A stretch of 64,000 bases of DNA from Minisyncoccia bacterium (GTDB lineage: Bacteria; Patescibacteriota; Minisyncoccia; SW-4-49-11): NCBI GenBank assembly GCA_044356325.1, contig JBIKWJ010000003.1, forward strand, positions 36,749 through 100,748. Reading direction: 5' to 3'. Below, piece after piece: positions 2,548-11,779 of the stretch (position 1 is the stretch's first letter; every line of letters begins with the position of its first letter). A program made the translations under genes and the position numbers. A model generated the notes under the pieces. The model was not told where the DNA came from, searched no databases, and saw only the letters and a program-made list of their open reading frames with translations.

Positions 2548-3405
2548 TTACATTACTACTTTTTCTGCTCTCTTTGACTCAAAATATCTAAGTCGAGCCA
2601 ATGTATCAACTTTGATATATCGAGATTGTAGCTCACTCCAAATATCCTTTAAAGCTTGATTTGTATTACCATCCAATCCTTCAAAATTATATTCAGTGAT
2701 AGCTTCATCAATAGGAATTTCGCCTAATAAAATATCCTTATATTCTTGTTTTATCTGATGATATAAATCATTATCTCGAGGTTTATTTAATATTCCATAA
2801 AATGGGATATCTAATTTTGCTGCAAGTACTCGTAATTGCTCGAATACTTTTTTACTATTAATATGAGGCTCTACCACACCTACCAACATATCGACGCCAC
2901 TAAACAATCCAAAATGCAACATGTCAGCCCCCGCCACACCATCAATAATCACTTGATTATTTCCCTCATTTAATAATGGGAGATAAAATTTGAGAGGGGC
3001 AGAATGTCCATGAGCACACCGAGCACTATACAAAACATCTTCAGCCCCTAGCCCCACTACTTGCAAAGATAGATTATGATGAATTGGATAACTAATAGAT
3101 TGAGTGAATTCATCTGATGGCTGAAAACTAAATTGAGGTAAAATCCTATCTTCAAGAACAATACGAGACCATTTAGAATCTTGTTCTAGACCGACTTTAT
3201 ACTGAAAATCACTATGGGCTCGGTGGAATGTTTGTGTGTCATCTTTAACCTCAAATCCAAGAATGCTAGCCAAATCCATATTATGATCAGCATCAATCGC
3301 AAGTACTGAGTATATTCGAGCAAGATACATACTCAATAGCCATGAAGTTGTACTTTTCCCACTACCACCTTTTCCTACAATAGCAATTTTCATATCACCA
3401 AACAC
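2548..3405 (-). CDS. MinD/ParA/CooC-family P-loop ATPase (metal-centre maturation type)
   Basis: N-terminal deviant Walker A KIAIVGKGGSGKST and AIDAD motif. Overlaps the upstream GTPase gene by 16 nt. Confidence 0.6.
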   Translation of the reverse strand: MFGDMKIAIVGKGGSGKSTTSWLLSMYLARIYSVLAIDADHNMDLASILGFEVKDDTQTFHRAHSDFQYKVGLEQDSKWSRIVLEDRILPQFSFQPSDEFTQSISYPIHHNLSLQVVGLGAEDVLYSARCAHGHSAPLKFYLPLLNEGNNQVIIDGVAGADMLHFGLFSGVDMLVGVVEPHINSKKVFEQLRVLAAKLDIPFYGILNKPRDNDLYHQIKQEYKDILLGEIPIDEAITEYNFEGLDGNTNQALKDIWSELQSRYIKVDTLARLRYFESKRAEKVVM

Positions 3406-4469
3406 TTATCTAATGACTCTACAATAGCTTTTTTATCCATATCAGCTCCAATAAAGACAATTTTCTGTTCACCCTCAATCTCCCCACTCTTAGATTTACT
3501 CCAATATCCATAGGGGTCAAGATTAATAATATTTCCTGCTTGAGACCATAATAAGGCAGTCGTGAGATCAGAATTATCCCAAGCAAATCCCTTAGAGCGA
3601 ACAACCCCTTTTAATGTCCCATTTTGTAATAATTCCATCAACTTTTGTCTATCAAAAGGTTTTTTAGACTCATATACAAAACTACTAATACCATATTCTT
3701 CTGTTTCTGGAGTATGTTCACCTCTCATTTCCTTGAGCCATCCCATATTCTGAGAAGCTTTATCAAAATCAAATAGTCCGGTATTAAGAATTTGATCAAG
3801 AGTAATATCCCCTTTCACCGCCTCAATAATCCGAGCATCGGGATTAAGCTTAGTTACAATACCTCGAATAGTACCCACAGTTCCCTTATCCACCAAATCC
3901 ACTTTAGACAATACAATCACATCAGCAAATTCAATTTGATCTGTAAGAAGTCCCACAATGGTTCGGGTATCTTCTTCCCCAAGAGATTCATCAGTATCTT
4001 TAAGCTGATCTTCTGAGGCAAGATAATTCATAAAATTAGCCGTATCTACCACCGTCACCATGGTATCCAATCGTGCAAAGTTAGATAAAATATCTCCAGA
4101 CTCATCATCAAAGGTAAATGTTTCCGCAATAGGCAATGGTTCAGATATTCCCGTAGATTCAATCACTAGATAATCAAATCGATTTTCTTGAGCTAATTTC
4201 TTCACCTCCACCAATAAATCTTCCCGCAATGTACAACAAATACATCCATTACTGAGCTCAACCAGTTTTTCTTCGGTCTTACTCAGAGAAACCTCATTAT
4301 TAGCCACCAATTCCGCATCAATATTCACATCAGACATATCATTCACAATCACCGCAACCTTAAGACCCTGCCTATTTTTAAGAATAGCATTAAGAAGAGT
4401 AGTTTTCCCACTACCCAAAAATCCAGATAAGACCGTCACCGGTAAACGATGAGATTGAAACTCTAACAT
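3390..4469 (-). CDS. COG0523 (CobW/ZigA/YeiR) family metallochaperone GTPase
   Basis: GFLGSGKTTLLN P-loop and the CICCT metal-binding motif characteristic of COG0523, with a CobW C-terminal-like domain. Confidence 0.8.
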   Translation of the reverse strand: MLEFQSHRLPVTVLSGFLGSGKTTLLNAILKNRQGLKVAVIVNDMSDVNIDAELVANNEVSLSKTEEKLVELSNGCICCTLREDLLVEVKKLAQENRFDYLVIESTGISEPLPIAETFTFDDESGDILSNFARLDTMVTVVDTANFMNYLASEDQLKDTDESLGEEDTRTIVGLLTDQIEFADVIVLSKVDLVDKGTVGTIRGIVTKLNPDARIIEAVKGDITLDQILNTGLFDFDKASQNMGWLKEMRGEHTPETEEYGISSFVYESKKPFDRQKLMELLQNGTLKGVVRSKGFAWDNSDLTTALLWSQAGNIINLDPYGYWSKSKSGEIEGEQKIVFIGADMDKKAIVESLDKCLVI

Positions 4470-4549: not shown

Positions 4550-4945
4550 TTATCTTAATAGAATCCAAATATCTATTATCGTAATAGTTAATGTCACAAT
4601 AATAGCTAAAGCTACTATACTAGACCCAATATCTTTAATCCTCTTGATATGTATATTCCATTGAGGTTCCATAAAGTCACAAGTCAACTCAATTGCAGTA
4701 TTGATAAGCTCCAAAATAATGACAAAAGTTCCAAATAAAATAGTTTGCTTTATTAATGGCCAACTTTGCAGAAATATTTCTAATCCAAGTAATAGTAGAA
4801 TTACTACGCTTGTCTGTATAAACAAATTTTTGTCTCGAGAAAAAGCATATCGTAACCCCTCAATCCAAAGCTGATATTTTGATGATAATTTCATAAAGTA
4901 GTATAATCTTCTACCCGTTATATTACTATTTAGATAAACCACCAA
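4550..4945 (-). CDS. dgkA: Diacylglycerol kinase / undecaprenol kinase
   Basis: 131 aa with three TM helices and the ELINTAIE..D motif of the prokaryotic DgkA family. Confidence 0.75.
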   Translation of the reverse strand: MVVYLNSNITGRRLYYFMKLSSKYQLWIEGLRYAFSRDKNLFIQTSVVILLLLGLEIFLQSWPLIKQTILFGTFVIILELINTAIELTCDFMEPQWNIHIKRIKDIGSSIVALAIIVTLTITIIDIWILLR

Positions 4946-5258: not shown

Positions 5259-6011
5259 ATGCGTTATCAAGTAGTTTATGATAAATTAATAATTTCTGAT
5301 ATACGATTTGGCTCTCTTAAAGAAGATTCACTTTATTCAGTTTTTGAAAACCTCATTAACTCGGATCCCTTTTCTACAGATCACGAAATAAAGAAAAGTT
5401 TATTTATTAAGTTATCAAAAATATTTGTTTATATAGACTTAGTACTTCCAGAACTTAAATCTCCTCCTATAATAAACTATTCTCTCCCTTTTGAAAGTTT
5501 TCCAAAAACAACCTTTGAGAATGATATTATAAAAAACTTATTTGAAGACATTTGCGTTACATTTAGATCTAGTTTAGATATTTTAACACATTTACTTTAT
5601 ACCAAGATAAAATCTCTTCCTGCATTACCCAAAAAGCCCAATGGAGAATTAGATCCCAATGGGAAATACGAGGGTTTTAAACGAAGCTCTAAACTAAAGG
5701 TAGACACATTAAAAATATTAAAGAAAGATGCTCCGGCTTTATATGCAATATTTCAAAAACATAATGATTGGATAAAGCAACTTTGTGACTATCGTGATAC
5801 TATTATACATAAAAGAGGACATATTGATATTAGTTATTGGACGAAAACTCAAGAAAAGCAGTCAATTACTTGGATAACTCCTATGTTAGATAATGAAGAA
5901 TCAATAGAATTATTTACTATTAAAATTCGTGCGGAGATAATTGAATTTTATAAAGAAATTTTAACTGAATATGATAATCTAACTCCTCAAACCAACCCCT
6001 CGGCGGAGTAG
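5259..6011 (+). CDS. Hypothetical protein
   Basis: 250-aa ORF with no recognisable motif. Its last codons overlap a remnant of the ABC permease 3' end. Confidence 0.35.
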   Translation: MRYQVVYDKLIISDIRFGSLKEDSLYSVFENLINSDPFSTDHEIKKSLFIKLSKIFVYIDLVLPELKSPPIINYSLPFESFPKTTFENDIIKNLFEDICVTFRSSLDILTHLLYTKIKSLPALPKKPNGELDPNGKYEGFKRSSKLKVDTLKILKKDAPALYAIFQKHNDWIKQLCDYRDTIIHKRGHIDISYWTKTQEKQSITWITPMLDNEESIELFTIKIRAEIIEFYKEILTEYDNLTPQTNPSAE

Positions 6012-6025
6012 CATTAAACTTTTTA

Positions 6026-6361
6026 TCAAGCTTTTATCGCTTTCGTATTCTTTATTTTCTGAACAAGATATAATTGCCTCACCATCAAAATATAATTAAT
6101 TGTCATCCATATAATATATTTTACCCATCCATATGCCCATCCAACCTCGGAATCAATTTCCATACCAATACTAAAATGTACTCCCATAATGGATACAAAG
6201 AATATTCCTACTACCCAAAATAATTTTCTCTGATATTTCAGTATAGATATTTGTAACCATAATAACAGAACAAATGGGAAAAGTTGTATATATAATATTA
6301 GTATTGATCCTATTATACCCTCCCATATCATATTCCATTCCATATATATATTATTTAACAA
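6026..6361 (-). CDS. Small membrane protein, paralog of 7757..8077
   Basis: Near-identical to 7757..8077 (MEWNMIWEGI...). About three TM helices. Lies in the tandem cassette unit A. Confidence 0.5.
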   Translation of the reverse strand: MLNNIYMEWNMIWEGIIGSILILYIQLFPFVLLLWLQISILKYQRKLFWVVGIFFVSIMGVHFSIGMEIDSEVGWAYGWVKYIIWMTINYILMVRQLYLVQKIKNTKAIKA

Positions 6362-6362
6362 A

Positions 6363-6716
6363 CTACCTATTAACTTTCTCCTTTGGTTTTATATCAATGA
6401 GAAGAAAGGCTAATGCTAAGGTTAATAGAGTTTTATCAAATGGAATAATAAATAAAGCATTATATGTATTACTCATACTCAAAGCCAGTAAAAGTATTAT
6501 AGTTAAACTAAGTATAATAAGAACTATATAATACCATTTCTTCTCCAATAGAATAATACCCTCTAGATAATGAGCTCCACGTAAAATAGCTAAAATGAGT
6601 AGATACCATATCATAAAACTAATACTCCCTGATGGCTCAAAAACTACAATTCCAAGACTAATCAGTGTGATGAGAATTAATACATATTTTTTCATATAAT
6701 ATCCCTTTATCGACAA
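6363..6716 (-). CDS. Small polytopic membrane protein (candidate immunity protein)
   Basis: 117 aa with four hydrophobic helices, immediately downstream of the secreted protein 6707..7624. Confidence 0.45.
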   Translation of the reverse strand: MSIKGYYMKKYVLILITLISLGIVVFEPSGSISFMIWYLLILAILRGAHYLEGIILLEKKWYYIVLIILSLTIILLLALSMSNTYNALFIIPFDKTLLTLALAFLLIDIKPKEKVNR

Positions 6717-7624
6717 TTACCTCCTGTATATGACCAAAACCAGCTAGGTCCTGAGTATACCTGATGTGTGGCTAAACATGCTCCACGATTATAAGCCCAA
6801 TTAGCCCAGGCTGTAAAGACTCCAAGAGGGACTGACACAAAAGGAAGCCTAAAGAATATCGCTGTACCTGCTCCAGTAGCAAACATAATATTATTTGTTT
6901 CAGATCTATTGAAATAATAACTATATCCCCACCAATGTCTACCAATAACTGGATCAGCTACAACAGGATAAACTATTCCAGACACTTTATGTTCTACAAC
7001 CTGTATAAGCTTATTATTTCTTATTTTAAAATATGTTTTCACTTCTTTTCCCTTAGCATCTTTTGCCCAAGGTGGACTAATAATGGAAATAATTTTTGAT
7101 TGATCTTTATTAAATACTATTACTCCTTTTCCACCATCTTCATTTACCGCCTCTTTCAATACAAATTCTCCCTTGATTCCTATTTTATACTCATATTCAG
7201 TAGGAGCATCTGGATTGTCTATAATTGTGGTCATTCTTACTGAGCCATCATTATTAGCTTGTACGGTATTGCTAAAATCTGATTCACTAGCATAGGCTAC
7301 TACTTCTTTTGCTCCTTCTAATTCTGGTAGGGTTATATTAATAGATGTATTTTCTGCTTTTACATTTACTGGTTCATCAGCGTCTTTTGGTATATCTATT
7401 GTACTGTTATTTGTCTTGACTATTCCTGCAGAATCTTGATCTGATTTGAGATTAACTTGTGATGATTCTGATAGTAATCCATCTATTCCTTCTAATGCCG
7501 ATTTAATTTCTGTATTATCTTTATTTGGTATATTATCTGCTGCATTTACATAGCTCAATACTGAAACCTGACTAACTATTATCCCTACAATCGCTAAATA
7601 TATAATACCCTTTTCTAATCTCAT
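6707..7624 (-). CDS. Secreted protein with a conserved N-terminal domain and a variable Trp/Gly/Cys-rich C-terminus (toxin or bacteriocin-like), copy A
   Basis: Signal peptide. About 200 aa nearly identical to 9086..10054 up to GIVYPVVADPV, then a completely different 78-aa W/G-rich tail ending in two Cys. Confidence 0.6.
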   Translation of the reverse strand: MRLEKGIIYLAIVGIIVSQVSVLSYVNAADNIPNKDNTEIKSALEGIDGLLSESSQVNLKSDQDSAGIVKTNNSTIDIPKDADEPVNVKAENTSINITLPELEGAKEVVAYASESDFSNTVQANNDGSVRMTTIIDNPDAPTEYEYKIGIKGEFVLKEAVNEDGGKGVIVFNKDQSKIISIISPPWAKDAKGKEVKTYFKIRNNKLIQVVEHKVSGIVYPVVADPVIGRHWWGYSYYFNRSETNNIMFATGAGTAIFFRLPFVSVPLGVFTAWANWAYNRGACLATHQVYSGPSWFWSYTGGNCR

Positions 7625-7756
7625 ATGTGTAGTTTATGAATAATAAGAGTGTACATATATTTAATATATTAGGTTTATTTATATCTGTCAATATTTGACA
7701 GGACCGCACCCCCTAACCCCTCAACCCAACAACTTTCCAGAGTAGCATTAAATATT

Positions 7757-8077
7757 TTATTGATTCTTTATCTCTTTCGTATTTTTTATTTTACGGACAA
7801 GATATATTTGTCTTAACATCAAAATATAATTAATTGTCATCCATATAATATATTTTATCCATCCATATGCCCATCCAACCTCGGAATCAATTTCCATACC
7901 AATACTAAAATGAACCCCCATAATAGATACAAAGAATATTCCTACCACCCAAAATAATTTTCTCTGATATTTTAGTATAGATGTTTGTAACCATAATAAC
8001 AGAACAAATGGGAAAAGTTGTATATATAATATTAGTATTGATCCTACTATACCCTCCCATATCATATTCCATTCCAT
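7757..8077 (-). CDS. Small membrane protein, paralog of 6026..6361
   Basis: About 95% identical to 6026..6361. Lies in tandem unit B. Confidence 0.5.
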   Translation of the reverse strand: MEWNMIWEGIVGSILILYIQLFPFVLLLWLQTSILKYQRKLFWVVGIFFVSIMGVHFSIGMEIDSEVGWAYGWIKYIIWMTINYILMLRQIYLVRKIKNTKEIKNQ

Positions 8078-8085
8078 ATATATAA

Positions 8086-8601
8086 CTACTCAATACTAAA
8101 CTCTATTTTTTCTCCCATATTAGGTGATATATATTCTATAATATTTTCTCTTTTTTGAATACCATCAAATATATAGTTAATATCTATAGAACAATCTTCT
8201 GGAATCTTAATCCAAATTGTTCTTCTATCTCCTTTATTTAAGTCATTAAGAGATTTTTCTTCACAACCTAAAATTTGTATATCTGTAATTTTATCTGATG
8301 TAGAGTTTATCAGTGTAATCCTTGCATAATTAATTAATAATATAACAAAATAACTATATGCAATTGCTATCAAAATATTTAGTACTATTATACTACAAGA
8401 TTTTAGTTTTATATTTATACTATTTTTACTAAAAATTATTATAAATCCTAAAATAATACTTATTATAAGAATTATTATCCCTATAAAATAACTTATAAAA
8501 ATAATATCTATTGATAAAGTTATATAATACATCCCAAATAAAACTGTCTCTATCAGGAAAAATACTAGAGCTGTTATGACTGTGAATTTTTGTAAGCTCA
8601 T
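8086..8601 (-). CDS. Membrane protein with N-terminal TM helices and a C-terminal soluble domain (candidate immunity protein)
   Basis: 171 aa with four hydrophobic helices then a roughly 70-aa polar domain. Confidence 0.45.
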   Translation of the reverse strand: MSLQKFTVITALVFFLIETVLFGMYYITLSIDIIFISYFIGIIILIISIILGFIIIFSKNSINIKLKSCSIIVLNILIAIAYSYFVILLINYARITLINSTSDKITDIQILGCEEKSLNDLNKGDRRTIWIKIPEDCSIDINYIFDGIQKRENIIEYISPNMGEKIEFSIE

Positions 8602-8662
8602 ATATACATTAACCCCTATTTCCTCCTAGTTATATACCTTTTGATTATATATTATTATAAAT

Positions 8663-8887
8663 TCACTTTTTTATGGATATTACTATACTGATGATCATAA
8701 GAATTATTACCAATGCGTATGTTTTTATACCATTTACTATGAACTGCAGATACCCTTGTAAGCTCAAGTTCCCAAGCGACTGAGTTATCCAAGCATAAAT
8801 AAAATAAAAAAAGATTGTCCAAATAATTAATATTCCTATTTTTGTATATATTTTCATATTAATATTTAATCTTTTTTCTTTCCCCAT
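8663..8887 (-). CDS. Small membrane protein
   Basis: 74 aa with two TM helices. Confidence 0.35.
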   Translation of the reverse strand: MGKEKRLNINMKIYTKIGILIIWTIFFYFIYAWITQSLGNLSLQGYLQFIVNGIKTYALVIILMIISIVISIKK

Positions 8888-9096
8888 TGATATATAAATA
8901 GTAGTATTAACCCTATATATACCAAAGGATTTCTTATAACACTCATAAACCCTCTCCCCACAGAATTACCCATATCTATAATTGGATTACCTGTTTCCCT
9001 CAAAAATGGAAATGCCAGCCACATAATAAATAAGATAATTATGATGAATACTAAGTATCCTAATGACTGTAAAACTTTATTCTTTTTATCTTCCAT
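8866..9096 (-). CDS. Small membrane protein
   Basis: 76 aa with two TM helices, directly downstream of secreted protein copy B. Confidence 0.4.
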   Translation of the reverse strand: MEDKKNKVLQSLGYLVFIIIILFIMWLAFPFLRETGNPIIDMGNSVGRGFMSVIRNPLVYIGLILLFIYQWGKKKD

Positions 9097-10054
9097 ATGT
9101 AATATTAATTATATATATAGTTCGTGACTGTATATAGTTCTTTACTGGCTGCTTCCAAGGCCCTGGGATAAATCTTCCTGCAACACCAAAAACTAAACCA
9201 CTTGAACATCCATCAACAGCTCCCAGAAGTCTATCCCTCCAGCTCCAGTTTCGATCCTTTCCTACTAAAGTCCTTGCTCCCACTTTCAGTCCTTCCCATC
9301 CAAGATCAGTTATAGCTCCAGAAACACAAGATGTCGCTGCCCACACAGCAAATCCTACAAATGCAGCTGGAATAAACACAGGATCTGCCACCACAGGGTA
9401 AACAATACCAGGGACATTATGCTCTACATATTGTATGAGAGTAAGTCCATCAGTACTAAACCACGTTTTTACTTCTTTTCCCGTTGCATCTTTTGCCCAG
9501 GGTTTGGATATTATAGATATAGCGGTATTGCTATTATTATATAGTACCGCACTCCCATCAGATTGCAACTCTATTTTTCCACCTGTTGGCAAATCTACCT
9601 TATACTCATATTCAGTAGGAGCATCAGGATTATCTATGATAGTTGTCATTCTTACCGATCCATCATTATTAGCTTGTACGGTATTGCTAAAATCTGATTC
9701 ACTAGCATAGGCTACTACTCCTTTTGCTATAACTTTTCCTTCTTTTGCTCCTTCTAATTCGGGTAATGTAATATTAATGGATGTATTTCCTGCTTTTACA
9801 TTTACTGGTTCATCGGCATCCTTTGGTATATCTATTGTACTGTTATTTATCTTGACTATTCCTGCAGAATCTTGATCTGATTTGAGATTAACTTGTGATG
9901 ATTCTGATAGTAATCCATCTATTCCTTCTAATGATTGCTTGATTTCAATTGTCTCTGTATCTATTGCTTGAGCTGTCAATATTGGAGACACCTGTAATCC
10001 CAATATTGCTATAATTGTCAGATTTATAATTTGAGTTTGTAGTTTCATAAACAT
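9086..10054 (-). CDS. Secreted protein with a conserved N-terminal domain and a variable Trp/Gly/Cys-rich C-terminus, copy B
   Basis: Signal peptide. Shares the N-terminal domain with 6707..7624 through ...YPVVADPV, followed by a different 100-aa G/W-rich Cys-containing tail. Confidence 0.6.
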   Translation of the reverse strand: MFMKLQTQIINLTIIAILGLQVSPILTAQAIDTETIEIKQSLEGIDGLLSESSQVNLKSDQDSAGIVKINNSTIDIPKDADEPVNVKAGNTSINITLPELEGAKEGKVIAKGVVAYASESDFSNTVQANNDGSVRMTTIIDNPDAPTEYEYKVDLPTGGKIELQSDGSAVLYNNSNTAISIISKPWAKDATGKEVKTWFSTDGLTLIQYVEHNVPGIVYPVVADPVFIPAAFVGFAVWAATSCVSGAITDLGWEGLKVGARTLVGKDRNWSWRDRLLGAVDGCSSGLVFGVAGRFIPGPWKQPVKNYIQSRTIYIINITYGR

Positions 10055-10101
10055 TTACTTTATATATGAATTCTAGATTTTTTGTTAAATATTGTCAAGT
10101 T

Positions 10102-10872
10102 TTAACTCCTCAATCCAACACCTCGGCGGAGTAGCATTAAATCTGTAATAGAGAGCACAAGGACGAGCATTACGAGAATAGTGACAGATATCCCAATATT
10201 GACATCAGATATTCCAAAAAATCCATATCTAAAACCATTTACCATATAGAGAATTGGATTAAATCGTGAGACATTTTGCCAGAATTCTGGGAGAGCATTA
10301 ACAGAATAGAATACTCCTCCAAGATATGTAAGTGGAGTTAATACAAAGGTTGGGACAATGGCGGTATGGTCAAATTTCTTGGCAAAGACGGCATTCATAA
10401 GGCCTCCTAATGAGAATACTGTAGCAGTGAGTATAGAGAATAATAATACTGCCCAGATATTAAGTAGAGTTAATTTGGTAAATAGTAAAGCAATTAATAA
10501 TACCAATAATCCTACTCCGAGACCCCGTACAATTCCCCCTATAGTATATCCCCAAACTATTACCCAATTAGGGGTTGGAGAAACAAGTAATTCTTCTATG
10601 CTTTTGCCAAATTTAGCTCCAAAGAATGAGCCCACAACATTCATAAAAGCATTGGTAATAATCGCCATCATGACGAGTCCCGGCACAATGAATTGCATAT
10701 AACTCACTCCCTCAATATCCCGAATTTGGGAACCAACAAATGATCCAAAAATAAGAAAATAAAGACTGGTGGTAATTACAGAAGGTAATAATGTTTGTGG
10801 CCAAATTCGAAAAATTCGAATCATTTCTTTATTAATAATAGTATATAATGGTATCCAAATAGGTGCTTTCAT
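10102..10872 (-). CDS. ABC-2 type transporter permease
   Basis: 256 aa with six TM helices, immediately downstream of and co-oriented with the ABC ATPase. Confidence 0.7.
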   Translation of the reverse strand: MKAPIWIPLYTIINKEMIRIFRIWPQTLLPSVITTSLYFLIFGSFVGSQIRDIEGVSYMQFIVPGLVMMAIITNAFMNVVGSFFGAKFGKSIEELLVSPTPNWVIVWGYTIGGIVRGLGVGLLVLLIALLFTKLTLLNIWAVLLFSILTATVFSLGGLMNAVFAKKFDHTAIVPTFVLTPLTYLGGVFYSVNALPEFWQNVSRFNPILYMVNGFRYGFFGISDVNIGISVTILVMLVLVLSITDLMLLRRGVGLRS

Positions 10873-10873
10873 A

Positions 10874-11779
10874 TTATTGATTTACTTTATTGATGAACAC
10901 TTCCTCGAGTCTATTGCTCTTATTGCGTATTCCCATCACTTGAATATTATGCTGATGTAAATCTTGGGTAATAACATATAAATCCTCCCCTTTCAGTAAA
11001 TCGGTCTCAATGGTATCACCATCAGTGATTCGATATCGCTCAGGAAGACCTTTAGCCTCTCCCACAATATCTAATATGAGGGTATCCTTGGTAAGCTCAG
11101 ATAATAATTCTTTGACTGTACCTATTTCAAGAATATTCCCTTTATTAATAATTCCTACTCTATCACATAAATTCTCTGCCTCCTCGAGATAATGGGTGGT
11201 AAGTATAATAGTCACCCCTTCATTATGAAGTTCCCGTACGAATTCCCACATCTCACGCCGAAGGTCAACATCCACTCCTGCTGATGGCTCATCGAGTATC
11301 AGGATTTCCGGCTTATGAATCAAAGCTCGGGCTATCATAAGTCTTCGCTTCATACCTCCAGATAATTGCATAGCAACAGTATCTTTTTTGTCCCAGAGTC
11401 CAAGTCTCTTGAGTAATTCTTCAGAATATTCACGAGCCTGGGCTACTGGTACACCATAATATCCTCCCTGTTGTACTACAATATCCTGAACTTTTTCAAA
11501 CCAATTAAAATTAAATTCTTGTGGCACTACTCCAAGATATGTTTTAGCCTCAGATGGGAATTTAGCAAAATCTATACCATTAATGATAATTTCCCCCTTA
11601 GTTTTATTAGCAAGTGTAGTCAGTACATTAATTAATGTTGACTTCCCCGCTCCATTGGGTCCGAGCAACCCGAATATCTCTCCTTTATATATAGTTAAAT
11701 CAACTCCATTGAGAGCTTTAACCTTACCATCGCTATATGTCTTATATAACCCCTTTATATCTAATGCGATATCTGTCAT
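10874..11779 (-). CDS. ABC transporter ATP-binding protein
   Basis: Walker A GPNGAGKST, signature LSGGMKRRL and Walker B ILILDEP. Confidence 0.85.
   Translation of the reverse strand: MTDIALDIKGLYKTYSDGKVKALNGVDLTIYKGEIFGLLGPNGAGKSTLINVLTTLANKTKGEIIINGIDFAKFPSEAKTYLGVVPQEFNFNWFEKVQDIVVQQGGYYGVPVAQAREYSEELLKRLGLWDKKDTVAMQLSGGMKRRLMIARALIHKPEILILDEPSAGVDVDLRREMWEFVRELHNEGVTIILTTHYLEEAENLCDRVGIINKGNILEIGTVKELLSELTKDTLILDIVGEAKGLPERYRITDGDTIETDLLKGEDLYVITQDLHQHNIQVMGIRNKSNRLEEVFINKVNQ

Follow-up and report, generated by a model that had tools for sequence, protein, structure and literature searches.

What do two tandem units of secreted-protein and small membrane-protein genes do downstream of an ATP-binding cassette (ABC) transporter in an ultrasmall bacterium of the candidate phyla radiation (CPR)? 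The question is raised by a 64,000-nucleotide (nt) stretch of contig JBIKWJ010000003.1 from a Minisyncoccia bacterium, which was analysed as a whole and is called the window here. The relevant genes within positions 5979–10143 all lie on the minus strand and form two cassettes, at about 7713–10101 and 5979–7712, each composed of a precursor with a Sec-type signal (S1 and S2, respectively) followed by small polytopic membrane proteins (Table 1). In the order of transcription, the region contains the ABC ATPase, the permease, S1, TM76, TM74, TM171, TM106, a remnant of the permease 3′ end, S2, TM117, TM111 and a second remnant. A tandem array of two units had been proposed in a first-pass annotation of this DNA. 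The open reading frames (ORFs) lie as it described, all on the minus strand, and a DNA repeat (5979–6278 and 7713–8012, 90% identical) confirms the two units. The window is matched by a freshwater Paceibacteria contig, and the exact sequence of S2 is present in public metagenomes. As set out below, two bacteriocin cassettes of the closticin 574 family probably occupy a hotspot of recombination that follows a housekeeping ABC-2 transporter, and would operate by the mechanism that we propose.

The carrier domain and its junction

By sequence comparison, the N-terminal domain of S1 and S2 is homologous to the pro-region of closticin 574, a bacteriocin of Clostridium tyrobutyricum. S1 aligned with closticin 574 over 243 amino acids (aa) in BLASTP (E value 3e-16), including the WAKDAxG and PVVADP motifs, and a profile of 49 family sequences matched closticin 574 in hhalign with a probability of 99.7% (E 3.9e-26). 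The 309-aa reference sequence is exactly UniRef100_Q8GCU9/AAN86034.1, the closticin 574 entry of C. tyrobutyricum. These matches assign to a named family a domain that the first-pass annotation had not recognised. S1 and S2 gave no significant match in Pfam, NCBIfam or PHROGs, closticin 574 itself has no Pfam domain, and neither Pfam nor NCBIfam has a model for the closticin pro-domain family.

Closticin 574 was reportedly described by Kemperman et al. in 2003, from strain ADRIAT 932 of C. tyrobutyricum. According to a passage of PMC10888436, the pre-protein is 309 aa long, of which about 27 form the signal peptide, and extracellular processing leaves an antimicrobial peptide of 82 aa. Counted from Pro228 of the ADP motif to the C terminus, the database entry also gives exactly 82 aa. 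From this agreement in length we infer that closticin 574 is cut between the invariant Asp (D227) and Pro (P228), and that the PVVAD/P junction of S1 and S2 coincides with the start of published mature closticin. The relatives compared were the plasmid bacteriocin of Clostridium butyricum MIYAIRI 588, the pNF1 gene of Clostridium beijerinckii and CLB of Bacillus altitudinis. The mature closticin-like peptide of B. altitudinis was designed to begin PDWSK (PMC10888436), a Pom-1 fragment matches the mature region of closticin (PMC7690686), and in the homologues from C. butyricum and C. beijerinckii the C-terminal 83 aa correspond to the peptide reported with bacteriocin activity (PMC5894183).

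S1, which is 320 aa long in public gene calls, and S2 both begin with predicted Sec-type signals. Their hydrophobic h-regions, located heuristically at residues 9–27 (S1) and 6–24 (S2), are accompanied by AxA-type sites, AQA/I and VNA/A, respectively, that were read off the sequence. The AlphaFold2 model of S1 (predicted local distance difference test (pLDDT) 88.6, predicted template modelling score 0.79) is all-beta from about residue 55 to residue 228 and ends in a tail of three helices; S2 was modelled less well (pLDDT 74.6), with a tail of mixed alpha/beta structure. The predicted pro-domain fold resembles the carbohydrate-binding supersandwich domains of glycosidases and lyases. Foldseek returned no match in the PDB at E ≤ 0.001, and a PDB sequence search with the family profile also found no match.

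S1 and S2 align over residues 1–226 (157 of 235 positions identical, E 1e-95), and the similarity stops directly after ...GIVYPVVADPV, the point at which a shared junction had already been placed. Identity is uneven before that point. The statement that the two proteins are nearly identical over about 200 aa stands for residues 31–147 (92%) but fails for the signal peptides (39%) and for residues 148–225 (62%). Past the junction, a forced alignment gives only 25% identity. The tails are short, unrelated and rich in Trp and Gly, as first described, and both are cationic (+5 and +3) and contain two Cys.

This architecture recurs across a large family. A phmmer search with the S1 pro-domain against 1.84 billion cluster representatives returned 3393 sequences at E ≤ 1e-3, counted at the 50% clustering level, and 1391 at E ≤ 1e-10. 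The closest of 138 homologues from 5.8 billion proteins come from Paceibacterota/Parcubacteria metagenomes and more distant ones from Actinobacteria. The family is also found on small plasmids of Clostridium and Bacillus and on large ones of Streptomyces; nearly all plasmid copies among the matches listed (C. butyricum, B. cereus and Streptomyces) are annotated as ‘hypothetical protein’. Ten columns are invariant among 49 diverse members (W186, A187, D189, A190, Q208, P220, V221, A223, D224 and P225). The junction, P[VI]xADP, reads PVVADP in 104 of 126 sequences, PVTADP in 15, PIVADP in 3 and, in one sequence each, four less common variants; both S1 and S2 carry PVVADP, and the Asp-Pro pair is invariant in the family.

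What follows the junction is variable. The same 126 sequences carry at least 22 unrelated clusters of tails after this one junction, and one of these clusters was later split by hhalign. Close homologues switch tails exactly at ADP, which bears out the earlier reading of a bacteriocin or polymorphic-toxin architecture with a demarcation motif: in its final 100 pro-domain residues, the protein P0006 matches S1 at 98% identity, and it then continues into an unrelated DUF6973 tail. Composition follows common rules. Among 227 members, 217 tails (96%) contain an even number of Cys (2, 4 or 6) and 182 pro-domains contain none; the tails have a median length of 84 aa and a median charge of +4, with 93% positive, and the median charge of the pro-domains is −14.

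Most family tails are without annotation. Known domains include DUF2599, in 14 of 133 members, and DUF4258, which has been proposed as a toxin module, in 2 of 133. DUF2599 (PF10783) and DUF6973 (PF22322) stand as C-terminal payloads directly after PVVAD/P (in P0006, P0011, P0019 and P0023, among others), which suggests that they are secreted, disulfide-bonded effector domains; a limited literature search returned nothing on the function of either. One 920-aa protein, P0176, has two closticin-type pro-domains in tandem, each ending in ADP (331 and 596), and represents a multi-carrier variant. P0222 (1321 aa, 20 matching stretches) was rejected as a member: it is without the WAKDA motif, and its sole [AS]DP lies outside the junction context.

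Tails A and B, carried by S1 and S2, respectively, gave no Pfam match at E values up to 10 and no significant one in NCBIfam or PHROGs. Past the junction, neither is convincingly similar to mature closticin 574 (PNWTKIGKCAGS...), and they belong to separate tail clusters; the likeness is one of composition only (two Cys, net positive charge, rich in Gly and Trp). The tail A family has 11 members. Tail A is 54% identical (52% by tblastn) to the tail of P0004, the precursor of the second cassette at the related locus L003, with pro-domains 80–87% identical, and it opens with a strongly hydrophobic stretch of 19 residues (Kyte–Doolittle score 1.94). Other carriers of the closticin type bear distant members of the tail B family; a tail B profile search of the 5.8 billion proteins returned a single fragment, missed known members and is uninformative on other carriers. 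Single-linkage BLAST clustering had lumped tail B with DUF2599, a relationship that hhalign rules out (probability 0.3%).

Membrane proteins and a proposed mechanism

All ORFs downstream of the precursors in the loci examined are small and encode two to four transmembrane (TM) helices. None of the cassette membrane proteins gave a significant match in Pfam, NCBIfam or PHROGs. Stop and start codons overlap at S1/TM76, TM76/TM74 and S2/TM117, which suggests translational coupling. Each precursor gene is preceded by a sigma-70-like match of 11/12, the best score in the region; the one before S1 closely follows the permease end and the one before S2 closely follows the first remnant. In this AT-rich DNA, the total of promoter-like sites is not above that of shuffles.

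Gene context makes it plausible that these are immunity proteins, and a 98-aa protein with two TM helices is encoded downstream at the closticin 574 locus. The first downstream gene differs with the tail: TM76/TM74 follow tail A, TM117 follows tail B, a 146-aa protein follows tail E, and a TM protein of about 100–112 aa follows DUF2599. TM76 occupies the same place after tail A at the related locus L085, TM74 has a 70%-identical homologue after the tail A variant of L003, and TM117 also follows tail B in L001, L002 and L016. Other genes cross tails, as do homologues of TM74/TM76. TM171 accompanies both tail A and the DUF6973 tail (L003, L004 and L085) and is therefore not tail-specific. A gene of the TM106 family comes last in most cassettes examined, whatever the tail type, so a tail-specific role is unlikely; it has the appearance of a conserved flank of the cassettes or of an accessory protein of general use. 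TM106 and TM111 are identical at 97 of 104 positions, that is 93%, and not 95% as first given. This orphan family is lineage-restricted, as 5.8 billion proteins yielded only 24 clusters; its more distant relatives (31–41% identical) are found in the DUF2599 cassettes of L003 and in L083.

On this basis, we propose that each cassette starts at its own promoter-like site and encodes a precursor in three parts: a Sec signal, an acidic, Cys-free, all-beta pro-domain with a supersandwich fold (about 195 aa) and a cationic tail (about 80–100 aa) that contains a Cys pair. As its homology with closticin 574 suggests, this precursor would be exported through Sec. A cut at Asp224/Pro225 would then free tail A as a 98-aa peptide and tail B as an 81-aa one; the cut could be made by a protease, by the acid lability of the Asp-Pro bond or by self-processing through the invariant WAKDA and Q residues. 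Before cleavage, the acidic pro-domain may hold the tail soluble and inactive. The freed peptide, hydrophobic or amphipathic and stabilised by a disulfide, would attack the membrane or envelope of competitor (or host) cells, and the translationally coupled membrane proteins would shield the producer, TM76/TM74 (with TM171) against tail A and TM117 against tail B. Last, the pro-domain region, the TM106-family gene and the 42-nt repeat could act as homology arms that drive duplication, loss and swapping of tail-plus-immunity modules.

Several points weigh against this proposal. A family search found no PedC-like thioredoxin among the cassette ORFs, unlike at the clostridial loci. The mapping between tails and membrane proteins is not one-to-one, and TM74/TM76 homologues follow a different tail in L007. 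Tails A and B, although probably antibacterial, are not homologous to mature closticin, so that this activity is read from architecture and composition only. For the closticin-like peptide of B. altitudinis, a passage of PMC10888436 records no activity in a cell-free assay. Finally, the hydrophobic stretch at the start of tail A could equally be a membrane anchor.

Were it an anchor, S1 and S2 might be type I membrane-anchored surface proteins, with a supersandwich ectodomain that serves, for example, as a carbohydrate-binding adhesin for host attachment, a variable C terminus formed by a TM anchor and a cytoplasmic tail, and an array that generates surface-antigen variation. The order of segments in tail A, a TM-like hydrophobic helix and then a basic segment, fits the positive-inside rule, the predicted fold resembles carbohydrate-binding domains, and CPR episymbionts need adhesins. 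We nevertheless consider this improbable. The C terminus of the homologous closticin 574 is described, in the passage cited above, as being freed as an 82-aa bacteriocin. Many family tails are non-hydrophobic, Cys-rich globular domains (DUF2599 and DUF6973), and tail B is without a TM-grade segment. The even number of Cys in 96% of tails implies an extracytoplasmic, disulfide-bonded location. Moreover, the tail varies while residues 31–147 stay 92% identical between S1 and S2, the reverse of antigenic variation. A Sec-exported bacteriocin precursor remains our preferred reading of S1 and S2.

Table 1. Features of the two-cassette array and its flanks (window positions)
Feature	Position	Strand	Basis or remark
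ABC transporter ATPase (DrrA/YadG-like)	10874–11779	−	PF00005 E 5e-34; TIGR01188 E 2.4e-74, below its cutoff
ABC-2 permease (YadH-type)	10102–10872	−	PF01061 E 5e-37; NF011648 E 5.6e-112, above cutoff
Promoter-like site before S1, TTGACA-17-TAGAAT	10070–10098	−	11/12 match, joint best in region
S1 pre-pro-protein, 322 aa	9086–10054	−	Homology to closticin 574 (BLASTP, hhalign), AlphaFold2
S1 parts: signal about 1–30 (...TAQA/I); pro-domain to D224; tail P225–R322	9383–9385 (D224 codon)		
Tail A, predicted released peptide, 98 aa from Pro225	9089–9382	−	Net charge about +5, 2 Cys
TM76, 2-TM membrane protein, candidate immunity	8866–9096	−	11-nt overlap with S1 stop
TM74, 2-TM membrane protein, candidate immunity	8663–8887	−	22-nt overlap with TM76
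TM171, 3 TM helices and C-terminal soluble part	8086–8601	−	ORF list, TM prediction
TM106, conserved cassette-terminal membrane protein	7757–8077	−	93% identical to TM111
Degenerate permease 3′-end remnant, boundary of cassettes 1 and 2	7713–7754	−	33/42 match
Promoter-like site before S2, TTGACA-17-TATATT	7663–7691	−	11/12 match
S2 pre-pro-protein, 305 aa	6707–7624	−	Alignment to S1, AlphaFold2
S2 parts: signal (...YVNA/A); pro-domain to D224; tail P225–R305	6953–6955 (D224 codon)		
Tail B, predicted released peptide, 81 aa	6710–6952	−	Net charge about +3, 2 conserved Cys
TM117, 4-TM membrane protein, best candidate for tail B immunity	6363–6716	−	10-nt overlap with S2 stop
TM111, second TM106-family copy, likely start 6343	6026–6361	−	Similarity to TM106, public gene calls
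Permease 3′-end remnant closing the array	5979–6020	−	37/42 match; overlapped by 3′ end of P250 ORF
P250 ORF, 250 aa	5259–6011	+	Converges on the array
Diacylglycerol kinase, far side of array	4550–4945	−	PF01219 E 2.7e-19
CobW-like GTPase, far side of array	3390–4469	−	
CbiA/ParA-like ATPase, far side of array	2548–3405	−	

A variable locus next to a conserved transporter

Relatives share a gene order of VCA0040-like gene, ABC ATPase, ABC-2 permease, variable insert and DUF1653-cobW-CbiA, and the insert differs from one to the next. A single cassette is found in L001 and L002 (tail B), in L004/L023 (DUF6973) and in L085, where tail A is followed by TM76-TM74-TM171-TM106 as in the window. L083 has one full cassette, with another tail and the 146-aa TM protein. 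L003/L021 have three cassettes (DUF2599, a tail A variant and DUF2599), and L018, L019, L020, L025 and L027 have none (permease 86–94% identical). Cassette number, from zero to three, and tail type thus vary at the same locus. Homologous recombination between the conserved flanks would explain both this range and the many tail types in sister genomes. The metagenome contigs L005, L006, L007 and L017 start or stop in or beside the array, which fits assembly breaks at repeats or population heterogeneity. Inside the variable region, L001 (11716–12354) and L083 (4508–5113) also encode a secreted or anchored protein of about 200–212 aa, 83% identical between the two loci, which is present in some relatives only and not in the window. 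On the far side of the array, the cobW gene is syntenic in relatives, and the DUF1653 gene of the relatives is absent from the window.

The cassette boundaries carry copies of the permease 3′ end, as the first-pass annotation had noticed, and these are genuine. Compared with the 42-nt permease end (10102–10143), the copy at 5979–6020 has 5 mismatches and that at 7713–7754 has 9. Neither strand of the window has a further site within 12 mismatches, and none arose in 100 shuffles. The three copies cease to be homologous precisely where the permease gene reaches its stop codon. Both remnant variants of the window recur in L003, each after a TM106-family gene, and the degenerate one is identical there. 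The single-cassette loci L001, L004/L023 and L024 have no second repeat within 11 mismatches.

These remnants had been taken as evidence that the ABC exporter is functionally linked to the cassettes. In that case, the transporter would be a dedicated partner, as an exporter or an immunity pump, and duplications would be anchored in its gene through shared function. Within the Paceibacteria clade, the permease does precede every array seen with enough flank, usually as its immediate neighbour, a permease remnant is found at each boundary in the window, and ABC-2 pumps give immunity to some lantibiotics. The permease, however, is of the PRK15066/YadH type, with orthologues at 66 loci in CPR, Omnitrophota, Planctomycetes, Gammaproteobacteria and other groups, and the five close relatives without a cassette retain the transporter. 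No ABC-2 transporter lies beside closticin itself or beside either of the two distant family members whose context was examined. The precursors carry Sec signals and lack a double-glycine leader, and a C39 peptidase domain is missing from the ABC system. The remnants record where recombination took place and are no evidence that the transporter serves the cassettes. A dedicated partnership is therefore very unlikely, and the claimed functional link is not supported by the present data, on which the ATPase and permease are conserved housekeeping neighbours and probably not part of the system.

The remnants could also be read as attL/attR scars, left by mobile cassettes that insert site-specifically, in the manner of integrons or islands, at an attachment (att)-like permease 3′ end. 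The repeats do have sharp ends, one at the stop codon of the permease and the other some 40 nt upstream of it, the window has n + 1 repeat copies for n cassettes, and blocks of TM106, remnant and P250 sit at different positions in the window and in L003. Set against this, L003 has n copies for n cassettes and the single-cassette loci are without a second repeat. No integrase or recombinase was recognised in or beside the array, among the cassette ORFs and P250, in Pfam, PHROG or the PDB. The long flanking homologies of the pro-domain gene and the TM106 gene suffice for homologous recombination. Site-specific insertion is accordingly unlikely, and recombination between homologous flanks at a hotspot is the reading that we prefer.

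The P250 ORF converges on the array from the plus strand and finishes in codons that are read from the complementary strand of the permease-end remnant. The block of this remnant and P250 is also present in L003. L003 and L001 have homologues of P250, 80% and 53% identical, respectively, that adjoin cassettes and lie on the opposite strand; the one in L003 also overlaps a remnant. A 244-aa ORF in L083 is probably another, judged by its position. P250 has no match in Pfam, NCBIfam, PHROG or the PDB. A role as a recombinase was considered and dropped, as no homology was detectable.

Known systems and significance

The closest known system is closticin 574, which shares with S1 and S2 the Sec signal, a pro-domain of about 200 aa with WAKDAxG and PVVADP, the Asp/Pro boundary, a cationic C-terminal peptide of about 80–100 aa with a Cys pair and a downstream gene for a small membrane protein. 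The window differs in its tails, which are unrelated in sequence, in having two tandem cassettes with two to four membrane-protein genes each, in its location, a CPR chromosomal hotspot as opposed to a small Firmicute plasmid, and in being without a PedC-like thioredoxin gene. In L012/L013, such a gene (292–669) precedes that of closticin 574, and matches on C. butyricum plasmids (H1–H6) overlap an annotated ‘thioredoxin family protein’. A thioredoxin gene at the clostridial loci fits disulfide formation in the mature peptide.

Polymorphic toxin systems were reportedly described by Zhang, Iyer, Aravind and colleagues in 2011–2012. As in those systems, close homologues here keep the N terminus and change sharply to unrelated C-terminal modules, candidate immunity proteins are encoded by small genes downstream, and the cassette arrays vary. 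A further likeness is the DUF4258 domain of rare family members. Unlike those systems, the window precursors rely on Sec-only export and are without Rhs/YD, HINT, PT-TG or PT-VENN; searches of S1 and S2 against Pfam and NCBIfam found no LXG or T5SS-T7SS (secretion system) trafficking signals, leaving the Sec signal only. Most family tails are short, membrane-active-looking peptides rather than enzymes, the array consists of full-length duplicates and not of 5′-truncated orphan toxin modules, and the candidate immunity proteins are polytopic membrane proteins and not soluble binders.

Class II bacteriocins such as pediocin and the pneumococcal blp peptides resemble the window in their cationic disulfide peptides, small membrane immunity proteins (candidates here), strain-variable cassette content and adjacent ABC genes. 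In contrast to them, the window has neither a double-glycine leader nor an ABC exporter with a C39 peptidase, its ABC neighbour being a separate ATPase and ABC-2 permease, and a folded pro-domain of about 195 aa with a Sec signal stands in place of a leader of about 20 aa. In alpha-defensin and cathelicidin precursors, an anionic pro-piece precedes a cationic, disulfide-bonded C-terminal peptide that is freed by proteolysis. The balance of acidic pro-domain and cationic tail is alike by analogy; there is no homology, the pro-domain of the window being a bacterial beta-supersandwich.

Knowledge of closticin 574 dates back to 2003, and genome mining flags ‘closticin-like’ genes as a matter of routine. 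The limited literature search gave no account of the polymorphic use of the carrier, with dozens of payloads at an invariant Asp-Pro, of the size of the family, of DUF2599 or DUF6973 as payloads or of tandem variable arrays in CPR, and no mention of closticin in a CPR context. Our results suggest that closticin 574, which the searchable literature treats as an isolated oddity among bacteriocins, is only the visible part of a large family. They provide a mining rule for new antimicrobial peptides, namely whatever follows PVxAD/P, give functional context to DUF2599 and DUF6973 and document a cassette-swapping hotspot, with zero to three cassettes, in streamlined genomes.

A bolder extension, which we offer tentatively and regard as rather unlikely, is that the pro-domain is a general and possibly self-cleaving carrier, a beta-supersandwich that poises the invariant WAKDA...Q...PVxAD/P residues to break its own Asp-Pro bond. 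It would then define a large, uncurated superfamily of Sec-exported polymorphic bacteriocins or toxins in monoderm-type bacteria (Firmicutes, Actinobacteria and CPR), with DUF2599 and DUF6973 among the payloads, and the hypervariable Paceibacteria array could be directed against the host envelope too. If so, the array of these genome-reduced episymbionts might permeabilise the envelope of the host, for instance for access to nutrients, besides hitting competitors. On our preferred reading, what was an anonymous array of ‘hypothetical protein’ genes becomes a testable antimicrobial system in the CPR, a group whose interactions with hosts and competitors are poorly understood.

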